In this document: one piece after another, positions 14,330 to 19,765 of the stretch | Layout of the letters: each line of letters begins with the position of its first letter | Numbering within the stretch: position 1 is the first letter of the stretch | IMG/VR virus record: IMGVR_UViG_2778261535_000002 | Direction: 5' to 3' (one strand) | Length of the DNA stretch: 30,513 bases | Source of the DNA: a virus | Taxonomy: Duplodnaviria; Heunggongvirae; Uroviricota; Caudoviricetes | Notes under the pieces: generated by a model | The model's database searches: none | What the model saw: only the letters and a program-made list of their open reading frames with translations | Told to the model about the DNA's origin: nothing | Position numbers and translations under genes: made by a program

Positions 14330-14849
14330 TCAGCAACCCCGGTATCAGTTCATCCAGCGCGGCTGCTTTGTTCATGGCTTTGATGATATCCCGTTTCAGG
14401 AAATCAACATGTCGGTTTTCCAGTTCCGGAAAACGCCGCTGCACCGACAGGGGGATCCCGTCGAGAATACTGGCAATTTCACCTGCGATCCGCGACAGCA
14501 CGAAAGTACAGAATGCGGTTTCCACCACTTCAGCTGAGTCTCTGGCATTCTTCAGTTCCTGTGCGTCGGCCTGCGCACGCGTAAGTCGATGGCGTTCGTA
14601 CTCAATAGTCCCTGGCTGGAGATCTGTCTCGCTGGCCAGCCGCAGTTCTTCAACTTCCCGGCGCAGCTTTTCGTTCTCAATTTCAGCATCCCTTTCGGCA
14701 TACCATTTTATGACGGCGGCAGAGTCATAAAGCACCTCATTACCCTTGCCACCGCCTCGCAGAACGGGCATTCCCTGTTCCTGCCAGTTCTGAATGGTAC
14801 GGATACTCGCACCGAAAATGTCAGCCAGCTGCTTTTTGTTGACTTCCAT
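14304..14849 (-). CDS. Nu1: terminase small subunit Nu1
   Basis: 181 aa ORF starting MEVNKKQLADIFGASIRTIQNWQEQGMPV, recalled lambda Nu1; adjacent to cos. Confidence 0.9.
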
Positions 14850-15075
14850 TGTTCATTCCACGGACAAAAACAGAGAAAGGAAACGACAAAGGCCAAAAAG
14901 CTCGCTTTCAGCACCTGTCGTTTCCTTTCTTTTCAGAGGGTATTTTAAATAAAAACATTAAGTTATGACGAAGAAGAACGGAAACGCCTTAAACCGGAAA
15001 ATTTTCATAAATAGCGAAAACCCGCGCGCCTGACGCCCCGTAGCCTGCCGGATCGCTGGAAAGGACCCGCAAATG
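14850..15075 (-). other. cos: cos site: cosB (about 14850..15026), cosN 12-mer (15027..15038), cosQ side (about 15039..15075)
   Basis: Flanks match recalled lambda left-end and right-end sequence across the junction; the 12-mer between them is CGCCTGACGCCC on the + strand. Confidence 0.75.
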
Positions 15076-15236
15076 ATAATAATTATCATCTACATGTCAC
15101 AACGTGCATCTACGCCATCAAACCACGTCAAATAATCAATTATGACGCAGGTATCGTATTAATTGATCTGCATCAACTTAACGTAAAAACAACTTCAGAC
15201 AATACAAATCAGCGACACTGAATACGGGACAACCTC

Positions 15237-15431
15237 ATGTCAACGAAGAACAGAACCCGCAGAACAACAACCCGCAACATCCGCTTTCCTAACCAAATGA
15301 TTGAACAAATTAACATCGCTCTTGATCAAAAAGGGTCCGGGAATTTCTCAGCCTTGGTCATTGAAGCCTGCCGTCGGAGACTAACGTCAGAAAAGAGAGC
15401 ATATACATCAATTAAAAGTGATGAAGAATGA
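15237..15431 (+). CDS. hypothetical small protein, possible ribbon-helix-helix DNA-binding fold
   Basis: 64 aa ORF; basic N-terminus then RNIRFPNQMIEQINIALDQKG...NFSALVIEACRRRL, resembling a CopG/Arc-type strand-helix-helix pattern; weak GGGA upstream of the ATG. Confidence 0.4.
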   Translation: MSTKNRTRRTTTRNIRFPNQMIEQINIALDQKGSGNFSALVIEACRRRLTSEKRAYTSIKSDEE

Positions 15432-15595
15432 ACATCCCGCGTTCTTCCCTCCGAACAGGACGATATTGTAAATTCACTTAATTACGAGGGCATTGCAGTA
15501 ATTGAGTTGCAGTTTTACCACTTTCCTGACAGTGACAGACTGCGTGTTGGCTCTGTCACAGGCTAAATAGTTTGAATGATTAGCAGTTATGGTGA

Positions 15596-15802
15596 TCAGT
15601 CAACCACCAGGGAATAATCCTTCATATTATTATCGTGCTTCACCAACGCTTCCTCAATTGCTCTGAATGCTTCCAGAGACACCTTATGTTCTATACATGC
15701 AATTACAACATCAGGGTAACTCATAGAAATGGTGCTATTAAGCATATTTTTTACACGAATCAGATCCACGGAGGGATCATCAGCAGATTGTTCTGTATTC
15801 AT
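15596..15802 (-). CDS. hypothetical protein (lambda right-end small ORF equivalent)
   Basis: 68 aa ORF at the position and size of a small ORF near the lambda right end; AT-rich. Confidence 0.5.
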
Positions 15803-16086
15803 TTTGTCGCTCCATGCGCTTGCTCTTCATCTAGCGGTTAAAATATTACTTCAAATCTTTCTGTATGAAGATTTGAGCACGTTGGCCTTACATACATCTG
15901 TCGGTTGTATTTCCCTCCAGAATGCCAGCAGGACCGCACTTTGTTACGCAACCAATACTATTAAGTGAAAACATTCCTAATATTTGACATAAATCATCAA
16001 CAAAACACAAAGAGATCAGACCAGATTGAAACGATAAAAACGATCTTGCAAACTACGCACTCTCATATCATATGGAAGGTTTATCT

Positions 16087-16497
16087 ATGGATCAGGTAGT
16101 CATTTTTAAACAAATATTTGATAAAGTTCGAAACGATTTAAACTATCAATGGTTTTATTCTGAGCTAAAACGTCACAATGTCTCACATTACATTTACTAT
16201 TTAGCCACAGAGAATGTTCATATTGTATTAAAAAATGATAATATAGTGTTATTAAAGGGCCTAAAAAACATTGTGTCTGTCAAATTTTCAAAGGATAGGC
16301 ATCTTATAGAAACGACCTCTAATAAGCTGAAATCCAGAGAGATCACATTTCAGGAATACAGAAGAAACCTTGCTAAAGCAGGAGTTTTTCGGTGGGTTAC
16401 AAATATCCACGAACAAAAAAGATATTACTATACCTTTGATAAATCATTACTCTTTACTGAAAACATACAGAGCACATCACAAATATTTCCACACTAA
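16087..16497 (+). CDS. hypothetical protein, possibly DUF1398/YbcV-like
   Basis: ORF 16072..16497; start moved to the MDQVVIF Met at 16087, which has GGAAGG upstream; AT-rich moron-like gene. Confidence 0.45.
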
Positions 16498-16795
16498 ACC
16501 ATAACGTCCGGTTTCTTCTACCCCAGCACCGGACTGGCTGACATGAAGAGCAACCCCGCGTTCAGTTGACGTGTTAATAACCCGGTGTACATCGTTTTTG
16601 ATTATTCCCCCACACTTGTGCAGAAGGAGTTCCCCGTCGGGCTACGGTCATGGTTAATGCGGGAATACAGCGACGATACAGCGCATTATGTGTCAGGCTT
16701 GAATACCTTTATCCGTTAAAAGGGATATCAGTTAAGTTATCCTGCGTAGGGTATAAGCCATTATCAAGCCCACCCGTAGATAGGCTTTGTAATGG

Positions 16796-17053
16796 CTACT
16801 TCGCTTTTGCTTCCGCTCGCTTACGCCGGCGCTCTTCTTTCCTCTCGGCTTTTGCCATGTCCATGAATGCCTGCATGATCGAGTTCCGCATCATGTAGCT
16901 AACAAAGTGATGATTGACACAGCCGTTGAGGCGCAGCTGCTCGCCAAACTCATCCACCGAGGCCAATGCTTCCATCATGCCCTTCTCGCCTTTCATGAAC
17001 TCTGAGAAGTCGCGCCCCGCTCTGGAGGCGCATTCAATGACACGATCAATCAT
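16796..17053 (-). CDS. hypothetical protein, Lys/Arg/Glu-rich C-terminus
   Basis: 85 aa ORF whose ATG overlaps the stop of the upstream KilA-N gene (ATGA), implying co-translation. Confidence 0.5.
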   Translation of the reverse strand: MIDRVIECASRAGRDFSEFMKGEKGMMEALASVDEFGEQLRLNGCVNHHFVSYMMRNSIMQAFMDMAKAERKEERRRKRAEAKAK

Positions 17054-17547
17054 CCCGGAAGCCCGGGGATCGTAATCTGCAGCTGGTTAGCCAGGGAGTT
17101 AATCTCAGCGACCAACACTGGCTTCGTATAGCGCCATGCTGCCAGCCCTTGTCCGCAGAAGCTCGCCATGTCTTTCTTCTGGTCAAACTCATGACATTTC
17201 ATGTTGAGCTGCGCACTTAAGCTGTTGCGATGCTGAAGTTCTCCGGTGAAGTAGTCATCGAGGACTTTATAGGCCGCGTACTTGAACCCGGGGTTTAGCC
17301 ATGCTGCATAATCATAAGCAACAAACTTCCCGCCATATGTTCCACCGTGTACACCGCGCTCAGTAAAAACCACAGATTCGTGGTTTTTCTCCAGCTCGGC
17401 TAAGAACTCTTTGGTCTGCTTGTTTCGCAGGTAGTAGTACGGAGATTCAGATTCACTTTTACCACTGGCTTTCCACATATCAGTGAGGCAGATCATGCCA
17501 TCTTCACCGATACGAATTGGTTGATTGAAGAGGGTTAATGATTTCAT
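17050..17547 (-). CDS. KilA-N domain protein
   Basis: 165 aa ORF with a KilA-N-like pattern (GMICLTDMWKASG ... GGTYGGKFVAYDYAAWLNPGFKYAAYKVLDDYF); sits downstream of two intrinsic terminators after Rz. Confidence 0.6.
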   Translation of the reverse strand: MKSLTLFNQPIRIGEDGMICLTDMWKASGKSESESPYYYLRNKQTKEFLAELEKNHESVVFTERGVHGGTYGGKFVAYDYAAWLNPGFKYAAYKVLDDYFTGELQHRNSLSAQLNMKCHEFDQKKDMASFCGQGLAAWRYTKPVLVAEINSLANQLQITIPGLPG

Positions 17548-17661
17548 AGCGTATACCTACTCTTTGAAATGAACCTTTGCCGCACAGGAAACCAGCCCAC
17601 CGAGGCTCGCCAGCACTAACTGGTATCCTCAAAGGCCCATTCCAAAGGAGCTGGTTCGGTG

Positions 17662-17720
17662 TAAAAAAACATGCGTTGCGGTACGCATTTATTGCAAAAA
17701 AGCCCCGCATCGCGAGGCTC
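17662..17720 (-). terminator. two tandem intrinsic terminators downstream of Rz
   Basis: - strand ATGCGT-ACCGCA-ACGCAT followed by GTTTTTTTA, then GCCTCGC-GAT-GCGGGGC followed by TTTTTTGC. Confidence 0.55.
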
Positions 17721-17750
17721 ATTAAATGGACTTTGTGATTTGCAAAAAAA

Positions 17751-18005
17751 TTATTTCAGGCATTGCGTCCTGATGTACTCCTGCATTTCGATAGTCGCGT
17801 TAGCATCAGCAAGCTCCTTTGTATATCTGGCGTCGAGTTCTGCTACATCATGTTGACGCTTCTGCATGTCAGCGATTGTGGATGTGGCCTTATCGCGCTG
17901 CTCTTTGTAGGTAATGGCGTTATCACGGTAATGATTAACAGCCCATGACAGGCAGACGATGATGCAGATAACCAGAGCGGAGATAATCGCGGTTACTCTG
18001 CTCAT
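17751..18005 (-). CDS. Rz: i-spanin Rz, naturally shortened (84 aa versus 153 aa in lambda)
   Basis: N-terminus [34 protein letters not shown] matches recalled lambda Rz; C-terminus ends ...RTQCLK with the conserved Cys; the central part is missing. Confidence 0.8.
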
Positions 18006-18478
18006 ACCTCAATCTCTCTGACCATTCCGCCAGCTTCTTTGAATTTTGCAATCAGGTTGTCAGCCTTATGCTCGAACTGACCATAACCAGCGCCCGGCAG
18101 TGAAGCCCAGATATTGCTGCAACGGTCGATTGCCTGACGAATATCACCGCGGTCAATCATCGGTAAAGCGCCACGCTCTTTAATCTGCTGCAATGCCACA
18201 GCGTCCTGACTTTTGGGAGAGAAGTCTTTCAGGCCAAGCTGCTTACGATAGGCATCCCACCAACGGGAAAGAAGCTGGTAACGTCCGGCTGCTGTTGATT
18301 TGAGTTTTGGGTTTAGCGTGACAAGTTTGCGAGGGTGATCGGAGTAATCAGTGAATAGCTCTCCGCCTACAATGACGTCATAACCATGATTTCTGGTTTT
18401 CTGACGTCCGTTATCTGTTCCCTCTGACCACGCCAGCATATCGAGGAACGCCTTACGTTGATTATTGATTTCCACCAT
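18002..18478 (-). CDS. R: endolysin R (lytic transglycosylase)
   Basis: 158 aa ORF starting [35 protein letters not shown], recalled lambda R. Confidence 0.9.
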
Positions 18479-18785
18479 CTTCTACTCCGGCTTTTTTAGC
18501 AGCGAAGCGTTTGATAAGCGAACCTATCGAGTCAGTACCGATGTAGCCGATGAACACGCTCGTTATATAAGCGAGATTGCTACTTAGTCCGGCGAAGTCG
18601 AGAAGGTCACGAATGAACCAGGCGATAATGGCGCACATCGTTGCGTCGATTACTGTTTTTGTAAACGCACCGCCATTATATCTGCCACGAAGGTACGCCA
18701 TTGCAAACGCAAGGATTGCCCCGATGCCTTGTTCCTTTGCCGCGAGAATGGCGGCTAACAGGTCATGTTTTTCTGGCATCTTCAT
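18462..18785 (-). CDS. S: holin/antiholin S (S107 start, with the S105 start at Met3)
   Basis: 107 aa ORF starting [22 protein letters not shown], recalled lambda S, including the MKM dual-start motif. Confidence 0.9.
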
Positions 18786-18902
18786 GTCTTACCCCCAATA
18801 AGGGGATTTGCTCTATTTAATTAGGAATAAGGTCGATTACTGATAGAACAAATCCAGGCTACTGTGTTTAGTAATCAGATTTGTTCGTGACCGATATGCA
18901 CT

Positions 18903-18940
18903 GGCAAAACGGCAGGAGGTTGTTAGCGCAACCTCATGCC
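18903..18940 (-). terminator. candidate intrinsic terminator or attenuator hairpin upstream of S
   Basis: - strand GGCA-t-GAGGTTG-CGCTAA-CAACCTC-c-TGCC followed by GTTTTGCC. Confidence 0.4.
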
Positions 18941-19027
18941 ACCCGCTTTCACGAAGGTCATGTGTAGAAGGCCGCAGCGTAACTATCACTGATGAATTCA
19001 GGATAGCCAGTGGCTACGGCTCAGTTA

Positions 19028-19103
19028 TGGTGCTGGTTAACGGACTTGAACCGCTACCCATTCGCTTACAAGGCGACTGCTCTACCATTGGAGCTAAACC
19101 AGC
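19028..19103 (-). tRNA. tRNA-Thr, anticodon UGU, with encoded CCA
   Basis: Hand-folded cloverleaf: 7/7 acceptor pairs (GCTGGTT/AACCAGC), 4 bp D stem, anticodon loop CTTGTAA, T arm AGCGG-TTCAAGT-CCGTT, discriminator A, CCA. Confidence 0.7.
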
Positions 19104-19108
19104 ATGTT

Positions 19109-19183
19109 TGGCGGGACAGCGTGGACTCGAACCACGATAAGAAGGTTAACAGCCTTCCGTAATGACCTTTATACGACTGACCC
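19109..19183 (-). tRNA. tRNA-like gene, probably tRNA-Asn (anticodon GUU), slightly atypical
   Basis: Acceptor stem 6/7 paired, D stem 3 bp plus one mismatch with GG in the loop, perfect anticodon stem GAAGG/CCTTC with loop CTGTTAA, T arm CGTGG-TTCGAGT-CCACG, discriminator G, CCA. Confidence 0.5.
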
Positions 19184-19184
19184 A

Positions 19185-19229
19185 AATAAAAAAAGCCACC
19201 GTTGCAACTTAAGAGTCACTAACGGCAGC
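19185..19229 (-). terminator. hairpin plus T7 run immediately downstream of the Q-like gene (tR'-like candidate)
   Basis: - strand CTGCCGTT ... AACGGTGG stem followed by CTTTTTTTATTTG, directly abutting the 5' end of the tRNA-like gene. Confidence 0.4.
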
Positions 19230-19246
19230 TTACCTTCTAATTATGG

Positions 19247-19765
19247 CTAAATGGATAATTGCATGTCAAGGCTTTTAACAGCAACATGCTTAACTTTCTC
19301 AACACGTTTACGCATTTTGAAAGCATTTTGCATTGGCTGGTACAAAACAAATAACGACGCTTTCAGGATGTCGTCAATTTCGTTTCTACAGGTTGCCAGT
19401 GAAGGTTTTCTCCATCCCTCGCCACCACGTCCACACATCTTGCGTGGCTTTGCAGTCGCGTGATAGTAGGATGCAATTGCTCGCTTAGATGAACCATGAG
19501 CGTAGTAGCTGAGGAGGATGCCAAAGGCTTTCTTGTCAATGCACATGACGGAATCGACGACCTGAGAAATCAACATTCCATCATCATCATTGCACATTGG
19601 CCTTGTCATAACTCTTCCCGGCTCTACGCTCTCCATGAACTTCGCTATTACGCTGCTCATACGCTTTTCCAGACGACCTGAATAAACCCATGCGCCCCAC
19701 AGTTCAAGCCAGCCATTCAGCCACTCATGCTGTTCTTTGGTGAGGTTTAGTTCTCTTATGCCCAC
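19247..19765 (-). CDS. putative late-gene antiterminator Q, not lambda type
   Basis: 172 aa ORF in the Q slot between ninI and the lysis cassette; sequence is unlike recalled lambda Q (207 aa). Confidence 0.55.

Follow-up and report, generated by a model that had tools for sequence, protein, structure and literature searches.

The window analysed here, a stretch of 30,513 nucleotides (nt) from the virus record IMGVR_UViG_2778261535_000002 (Caudoviricetes), is a lambdoid Escherichia coli prophage whose late genes lie on the minus strand and run from high to low coordinates. It matches the 30,513-bp E. coli contig NMHT01000057.1, of assembly GCA_002511955.1, at 100% identity. The subject of this study is a pair of small genes between the lysis and packaging genes, the first encoding a 165-amino-acid (aa) protein with a KilA-N domain and the second an 85-aa partner, together with the RNA leader in front of them. 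On the minus strand the order is the antiterminator gene Q, the transfer RNA (tRNA) genes tRNA-Asn and tRNA-Thr, the lysis genes S and R, a short Rz, a spacer of 203 nt, the 165-aa open reading frame (ORF) and the 85-aa ORF; past the latter come an AT-rich island with ybcV-like, ybcW-like and ylcI-like genes, then Nu1 and the large terminase gene. Both genes of the pair are in sense to late transcription, with the spanin gene on one side and the terminase genes on the other. The features of this interval are the following.

17050..17547, minus strand: 165-aa Bro-network gene, hkbK-like (KilA-N, residues 9-101; ORF11CD3, residues 109-161)
16796..17053, minus strand: 85-aa partner gene, hkbL-like, PHROG 875 (three helices predicted, with a basic tail rich in Lys, Arg and Glu)
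17556..17562, minus strand: Shine-Dalgarno-like GAGTAGG, 8 nt upstream of the KilA-N ATG
17562..17647, minus strand: leader core, a long imperfect hairpin of 31 consensus base pairs (RNAalifold)
17663..17688, minus strand: T2, a small hairpin that is helix P0 of the leader (ATGCGT-ACCGCA-ACGCAT, then U7)
17695..17720, minus strand: intrinsic terminator T1, just downstream of Rz (GAGCCUCGC-GAU-GCGGGGCUU, then a U-run)
17751..18005, minus strand: internally deleted i-spanin gene Rz, 84 aa (PF03245, profile positions 7-52 of 126 only)
17785..17786, no strand assigned: in-frame Rz/Rz1 deletion junction, 183 base pairs (bp) or 61 codons (BLAST breakpoints against contigs L001 and L003)

An earlier, sequence-only reading of the interval had described the two ORFs as a KilA-N moron. 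The coordinates, the minus-strand orientation and the ATGA overlap of the two genes were borne out by the ORF list and the sequence: plus-strand positions 17050-17053 read tcat, and the ATG of the partner (17053..17051) overlaps the TGA of the KilA-N gene (17052..17050). The overlap of the partner start with the stop of the first gene suggests that the two are translationally coupled. The assignment of the 165-aa gene to KilA-N was also upheld, with a Pfam match to PF04383 over residues 9-101 (E 3.7e-15; 56.1 bits, cutoff 23.8), but was incomplete, as a second Pfam domain, ORF11CD3 (PF10549, residues 109-161, 50.5 bits against a cutoff of 25, E 2.4e-13), had gone unnoticed. An ORF11CD3 C terminus joined to a swappable N-terminal module places the protein in the Bro network, and its relatives carry Phage_pRha or P22_AR_N in the place of KilA-N. 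The protein matched PHROG 129, annotated ‘transcriptional regulator’ (E 6.4e-61), and is 95.8% identical to HkbK of phage HK620. In its AlphaFold2 model (predicted local distance difference test score, pLDDT, 82.5) a small β/α N-terminal domain is followed by two long helices, the ORF11CD3 part being predicted as a hairpin of two such helices. The best fold match in the PDB was the APSES DNA-binding domain of Mbp1, a weak match (E 0.024, probability 0.90, template modelling score 0.26-0.40) that agrees with the relationship between KilA-N and APSES domains proposed in the literature. NCBIfam gave no match for the 165-aa protein or the 85-aa partner, a sequence search against PDB chains gave no meaningful match for either, and no study of the function of hkbK/hkbL or ORF11CD3 proteins turned up in the literature search.

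To judge by its DNA matches, the pair is an already known and well-distributed KilA-N accessory cassette of lambdoid and P22-like phages, of the hkbK/hkbL type. The cassette DNA matched HK620 (hkbK/hkbL), the Shiga toxin 2 (Stx2) phages 1717 and 2851 (annotated kilA), ECP1, PhiR49_1, which annotates the gene as “KilA-N-ORF11CD3,” and others. Protein identity to these counterparts is 95%–99%, and the cassette shares 96%–98% identity with hkbK/hkbL and with the genes of phages 1717 and 2851, ECP1 and PhiR49_1. Of 5,426 complete E. coli genomes, 389 (∼7%) carry the cassette; 177 contigs have the exact 165-aa protein on record and 203 the exact 85-aa protein. KilA-N-ORF11CD3 genes with 48%–57% identity, also co-oriented, immediately follow the spanin gene and precede the terminase genes in phage phiEt88 of Erwinia and in a prophage of Cronobacter, and a gene of this type lies downstream of the lysozyme gene, amid other Bro-network genes, in a Salmonella prophage. 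A contig of Salmonella Kottbus (L012, 1560-5034) has four Bro-network genes in and around its lysis cassette: a KilA-N-ORF11CD3 gene, a P22_AR_N-ORF11CD3 gene, a second KilA-N-ORF11CD3 gene and a further KilA-N gene. In E. coli PM7 (L151, 1835-3098) a Rha-family gene occupies the slot, with a 147-aa KilA-N gene and the partner behind it in that order, an arrangement that indicates that successive insertions stack in the interval downstream of Rz. The KilA-N-ORF11CD3 gene and the partner were also observed between the major tail subunit and tape-measure genes of Klebsiella phage vB_Kpn_RAH1 (L006, 2007-2755), from which it follows that the two-gene unit can relocate within late operons.

How the pair is expressed was approached through its terminators, promoters and base composition. 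Two tandem terminators had been proposed upstream of the genes. T1 is strong (−14.1 kcal/mol, z −4.0, with none of 200 shuffles as good); it is conserved in P22, HK544, HK97-like and mEp phages and is annotated ‘terminator’ in HK544, HK106, mEp235 and mEpX1. T2 has the form of a terminator only weakly. Its fold, at −6.9 kcal/mol (z −1.9), was equalled by 9 of 200 shuffles, it is homologous to the GCGC-ACCGCA-GCGC of P22-type copies that have no U-run, and the U-run is missing in most homologues; it is the first helix of the conserved leader. A consensus scan of the minus strand in 16796-17750 gave no sigma-70-like site, and beyond 16796 the same strand showed nothing that resembles a terminator. 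The guanine + cytosine (GC) content of the pair, 0.48-0.54, is like that of the flanking lysis and terminase genes, with 0.30-0.40 in the ybcV island. Having no promoter-like site, no downstream terminator and no atypical base composition, the pair is most likely not a moron in the strict sense; the AT-rich ybcV island looks far more like a true one. Two candidate control sites were rejected: a promoter from the TTTACA at the U-run has a poor −10 region, and this −35-like sequence is missing in P22-type copies, while no LexA box of the kind found upstream of Gifsy-type antirepressors was seen on reading the intergenic sequence. The missing promoter-like site, the flank-like GC content and the strong, conserved T1 together suggest an ordinary late-operon pair transcribed by a Q-modified, terminator-resistant polymerase. 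Q-dependent readthrough, which the earlier reading had offered beside a promoter that had escaped recognition, is thus the likeliest mode of expression, and the pair most likely consists of ordinary late-operon genes, like P22 rha in the slot.

From its folding and its covariation, the leader in front of the pair is a conserved structured RNA of ∼125 nt (17562..17688, minus strand). The 115 nt after T2 fold as a long hairpin (−46.4 kcal/mol, z −2.95), and the GAGTAGG directly abuts the 3′ end of its helix. Over 101 nt the leader shares 97% identity with the sequence ahead of rha/ORF201 in P22. Exact matching to a core pattern of 22 nt, which the window contains once (chance expectation 0), retrieved leader copies from at least 120 viral contigs; 74 distinct copies form alignment A2, whose apical 22 nt do not vary because the search itself required them. 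Over 35 pairs including P0, 99.8% of the pair cells in A2 are standard, compared with 35%–52% in slid controls. Both-sided changes were found at 4 of the 35 pairs (51 cells), 3 of them in the long hairpin, a level reached in none of 500 shuffles. In P0 an exchange of C-G for U-A is compensatory in 13 of 73 sequences, and several pairs of the leader are fixed G·U. Fixed G·U pairs combined with covariation indicate a constraint on the sense-strand RNA of the late operon rather than on DNA. Between the end of the conserved helix and the ATG lie 9-17 nt; the copy in the window has 15. A search of Rfam (15) over 14800-19400 gave no covariance-model match at E ≤ 1, and with relaxed filters over 17530-17760 it gave chance-level matches only, far below gathering scores; as far as these searches show, the leader is uncatalogued as an RNA family.

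The gene upstream of the leader is Rz in 84 of 122 viral-contig instances among the matches listed, and the genes that follow it are diverse. Counting all instances with a complete downstream ORF among the leader matches listed, Rha-ORF11CD3 follows in 47 and KilA-N-ORF11CD3 in 36; other KilA-N types follow in several, P22_AR_N-ORF11CD3 in 1, HNH_3 endonucleases of four types in others, and a partner-like N terminus fused to T5orf172/MUG113 in 1. Among these genes are a different KilA-N gene (HK544) and Rha-type genes (IdasGreatGrand, SI8), and in Klebsiella phage RothC the leader follows tRNAs and precedes an HNH endonuclease gene. Some viral contigs hold paired copies ∼2 kb apart, at 284-437 and 2302-2455 in L048 and at 2694-2715 and 4882-4903 in L062. 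One leader of L048 stands before an HNH_3 gene and the other before a gene in a cluster that resembles the Rha-type protein of SI8 and whose representative lacks ORF11CD3. The paired copies indicate that the leader is a reusable unit before successive accessory genes. In phage P22 itself (AF217253; L020, 1501-1615) the annotated start of ORF201 (rha) falls within the hairpin of the conserved leader. The ATG found 23 codons further on (MNELIANHDF...), which has a Shine-Dalgarno-like sequence, lines up with the start codons of all the other genes behind the leader, and the annotated start is probably wrong.

The 85-aa partner matched PHROG 875 over its whole length (residues 1-85 of 85, E 1.6e-53) and gave no match in Pfam, NCBIfam or the PDB. 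Its AlphaFold2 model (pLDDT 93) comprises helices at residues 2-20, 26-42 and 48-84, for which Foldseek found only generic or designed helical bundles in the PDB, all at E > 1. The family has 137 clusters, and every cluster with a source name is enterobacterial. A scan of genome contigs gave 6 partner loci, and a KilA-N gene lies in front in all 5 of those with upstream sequence. Among the leader matches listed, 33 of 39 KilA-N-ORF11CD3 genes have the partner behind them, as against none of 41 Rha-ORF11CD3 genes, which ties the partner to KilA-N proteins and not to the ORF11CD3 domain. It also occurs as a separate ORF after KilA-N-P63C proteins (242 aa) in mEp235, Klebsiella phage KP12, Raoultella, Scandinavium and Trabulsiella.

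Directly after the leader of an IMG/VR contig (L130, 1245-1870) lies a gene for a 161-aa protein with a C-terminal T5orf172/MUG113 domain. The N-terminal 67 residues of this protein are 40% identical to the partner, so the partner domain appears to be a shuffling module in its own right. The partner reads as a further small Bro-network module rather than an antitoxin. Zinc binding by its invariant Cys8, Cys45, His48 and His49 was considered and rejected, as the T5orf172-fused homologue has Ser, Cys, His and Ala at these positions. A 59-aa ORF in L012 keeps the first 14 residues of the partner (VSNRVIECASRAGR) and then diverges, which indicates a recombination scar inside the partner gene.

The pair had been taken to replace both bor and the distal part of the spanin genes, and of these claims the one on bor fits the comparison with sister prophages. 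The prophage of E. coli NS-NP030, which has Q, tRNA-Thr/Asn, S, R, ybcV, ybcW, ylcI and nohD in common with the window, has a full-length rzpD followed by bor, which lies on the opposite strand, and then ybcV; the pair is an alternative occupant of the bor slot. The short Rz has a different origin. It is 84 aa long compared with 145 aa in close relatives; residues 74-134 are deleted, leaving the N-terminal 73 residues (the transmembrane segment and the first periplasmic part) and the last 11. The junction at 17785/17786 corresponds to 4492/4676 of L001, that is, to one clean deletion relative to two relatives, and the Rz stop codon and the downstream terminator T1 are retained despite it. Rz1, in the +1 frame, has 7 native codons left, its signal peptide and lipobox Cys (LLVVSAC in L001) being gone. 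With neither a full-length i-spanin nor the lipobox Cys of Rz1, the two-component spanin is predicted to be inactivated by the 183-bp deletion and non-functional. In relatives the same cassette adjoins intact Rz genes of 145-155 aa; the deletion is, by this comparison, an independent internal event unrelated to the cassette.

None of the 5,426 complete E. coli genomes matched contiguously across the deletion junction. Thirty-six contigs have the exact 84-aa Rz on record, and in the contig index it occurs in 75 blocks, of which 24 contigs were read. One of the contigs (L146, 4977-7500) carries S, R, the truncated Rz, the leader, the KilA-N gene and the partner at 98% identity to the window. Its Q, terminase and capsid genes (HK97-type) are different, and the part in common with the window is 16506-19030 only. 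The presence of the 84-aa Rz in this other backbone indicates that the deleted allele is real and has moved between prophage backbones. Its occurrence in more than one backbone makes the spanin-deleted lysis cassette a natural test of how far phages can do without spanins outside the laboratory.

The neighbouring genes are listed below. S and R set the late-operon context and orientation for the cassette.

19247..19765, minus strand: antiterminator Q gene
19028-19183, late-operon strand: tRNA-Thr(TGT) and tRNA-Asn(GTT) genes, between Q and the holin gene
18462..18785, minus strand: holin S (PF05106, E 2.4e-30)
18002..18478, minus strand: endolysin R (annotated in relatives as glycoside hydrolase family 24 or lysozyme R)
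15237-16497: AT-rich island (GC 0.30-0.40), between the cassette and cos
16072..16497, plus strand: ybcV-like gene (DUF1398)
15596..15802, minus strand: ybcW-like gene, 68 aa
15237..15431, plus strand: YlcI/YnfO gene (DUF3950)

The tRNA-Thr/tRNA-Asn placement is identical in the sister prophages NS-NP030 and PM7, and the layout of the AT-rich island is that of the ybcV-ybcW-ylcI region of DLP12.

Taken together, these observations favor, with a probability of roughly 60%, a late-operon accessory cassette of the hkbK/hkbL type that lies behind T1 and a structured leader, encodes a Rha-like regulator and happens to stand beside an unrelated Rz deletion. The pair would be transcribed only in the Q-antiterminated late operon, during lytic growth, by a Q-modified polymerase that ignores T1. 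The leader hairpin would then set the amount of protein made, either by occluding or abutting the ribosome-binding site or as a processing site of double-stranded RNA; translation gating, double-stranded RNA processing and messenger RNA stabilization are the candidate modes of action. The 165-aa protein may bind DNA as a regulator or antirepressor-like factor that, by analogy with Rha, is expressed late and is non-essential, with the 85-aa partner as its putative cofactor.

Several points weigh against this interpretation or parts of it. Predicted pairing of the ribosome-binding site is 63% in the copy of the window, but just 36 of the 74 copies have a value above 50%, and strict occlusion was on this count rejected as the conserved function of the leader. 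HK620 bears the same two genes without the leader, which is therefore not obligatory for the cassette. The sequence of the partner tracks the host genus and not the type of KilA-N protein upstream, which speaks against a complex whose members co-evolve tightly. A promoter that is weak or not of the sigma-70 type may lie ahead of the pair. DNA binding by the KilA-N domain is suggested by family membership and by the weak fold match to Mbp1.

Other explanations give the pair a different role. It could be a defence module or lysogenic-conversion moron that has its own promoter, is expressed in the prophage and acts by abortive infection against superinfecting phages in the manner of BstA. The prophage defence protein BstA likewise has a KilA-N domain (PMC8585504), the interval between lysis and packaging genes is a known hotspot for defence and counter-defence genes such as phi80 Tai/Ati (PMC11364771), and the upstream terminators would insulate a unit of this kind. 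PADLOC, however, returned only a weak match over a short stretch to the candidate system PDC-S22 (E 3e-8) and no BstA model, the KilA-N core being all that the 165-aa protein has in common. Given also that no promoter-like site was found, that the base composition is not foreign, and that the gene is co-oriented in the late operon whereas bor and phi80 tai lie on the opposite strand, a defence role is unlikely. Tai/Ati was also tried as the identity of the neighbouring genes and rejected, as the size of TaiEcA (26 kDa) does not fit. Alternatively, the leader could serve as homology by which Bro-network and HNH genes are swapped through recombination, the genes being selfish, interchangeable cassettes of little benefit to the phage. 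One leader sequence does stand before more than 10 unrelated genes, including the four HNH_3 types, and occurs twice within single contigs; the same cassette lies between tail genes in RAH1; and the homology between HK620 and the window (16759..17552) breaks within a few bases of the cassette ends. Recombination homology of DNA alone would not maintain the fixed G·U pairs and compensatory changes of the leader, and gene swapping is compatible with a late-operon regulatory cassette rather than exclusive of it, which leaves the purely selfish account quite unlikely.

Two small adjacent genes with a 4-nt overlap also recall a toxin and its antidote, with the KilA-N protein killing or arresting the host like P1 KilA, to whose KilA-N domain its own is 29% identical, and the 85-aa protein neutralizing it. 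The partner nearly always accompanies this KilA-N type (33 of 39), but it also serves two unrelated KilA-N architectures, follows host genus without co-variation with the upstream protein, is missing behind six related KilA-N genes and has a homologous domain fused to T5orf172 rather than placed beside a toxin. As neither protein matched a toxin-antitoxin family in Pfam, NCBIfam or PADLOC, such a function is very unlikely. A single frameshifted gene, of which both ORFs would be fragments, has a negligible probability. A 123-aa protein from a single contig (P0001) does join an ORF11CD3 segment to partner sequence. The 165-aa and 85-aa genes keep their ATGA layout, however, in HK620, Stx phages, ECP1, PhiR49_1 and the 389 E. 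coli genomes, the exact proteins recur in 177 and 203 contigs, and in mEp235 and KP12 the partner is separate after a different upstream protein, with a 2-nt gap. No widespread continuous homologue was found, and the two are genuine genes, as had been proposed.

A more far-reaching reading, held tentatively and at a little short of even odds, is that the leader is an undescribed cis-acting RNA that gates, via translation or RNA processing, a hypervariable accessory slot after the lysis genes of lambdoid and P22-like phages (among them P22 rha, HK544 and the Stx-phage relatives), and that the partner is a new stand-alone Bro-network module cooperating specifically with KilA-N proteins. If so, gating by the leader would explain how potentially harmful Bro-network and HNH genes are tolerated inside a strongly transcribed late operon. 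The gene pair itself adds nothing new; the leader RNA is the most noteworthy residue of the analysis, with the circulating spanin-deleted lysis cassette. The leader provides a testable handle on the regulation by phages of Bro-network genes (KilA-N, Rha and antirepressor-like), for which genetic data date back to the work on phi80 and P22 rha.

Comparison with known systems places these features as follows. P1 KilA has the KilA-N domain in common with the 165-aa protein, with ∼29% identity over residues 11-127, but matches only its N-terminal two-thirds; the C-terminal region differs. P1 KilA is encoded in the lytic replicon operon and not in a late lysis-packaging interval. The slot of lambda bor and DLP12 borD, between Rz and ybcV or cos, is the position shared with the pair, although bor lies on the opposite strand and is expressed from its own promoter in lysogens, whereas the KilA-N genes share the strand of the late operon and have no promoter that could be detected. 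Among leaders that form double-stranded RNA hairpins, that of lambda N is an RNase III-sensitive hairpin in a phage polycistronic messenger RNA. Like the leader described here, it is a long imperfect hairpin immediately 5′ of the ribosome-binding site; the two have no sequence relationship, and occlusion is predicted in about half of the present copies. BstA likewise has an N-terminal KilA-N domain and is prophage-encoded (PMC8585504). The 165-aa protein is much shorter, has a different C-terminal domain and lies in a late operon, in contrast to the lysogen-expressed BstA. No sign of an embedded element of the anti-BstA type was found, although no search aimed at one was made.

The hkbK/hkbL pair of HK620 has the same sizes (165 and 85 aa), the 4-nt overlap and the late-operon position after Rz, and HkbL is 98.5% identical to the partner over 66 aligned residues. 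HK620 differs in the intergenic region between Rz and hkbK, which lacks the long leader hairpin, in its intact 155-aa Rz and in its P22-type packaging genes downstream. Rha has Phage_pRha as its N-terminal domain instead of KilA-N, and no 85-aa partner stands behind Rha-ORF11CD3 genes among the matches listed (0 of 41). The rha gene is described as a late-operon gene that is detrimental to lytic phage growth without integration host factor (PMC4936722). P22 ORF201 and phi80 rha nevertheless resemble the 165-aa gene in occupying the slot directly after Rz, in the C-terminal ORF11CD3 domain and in late-operon orientation, and the P22 gene has the nearly identical leader. Judged by position, leader and C-terminal domain, the closest characterized relative of the 165-aa gene is Rha of P22 and phi80.

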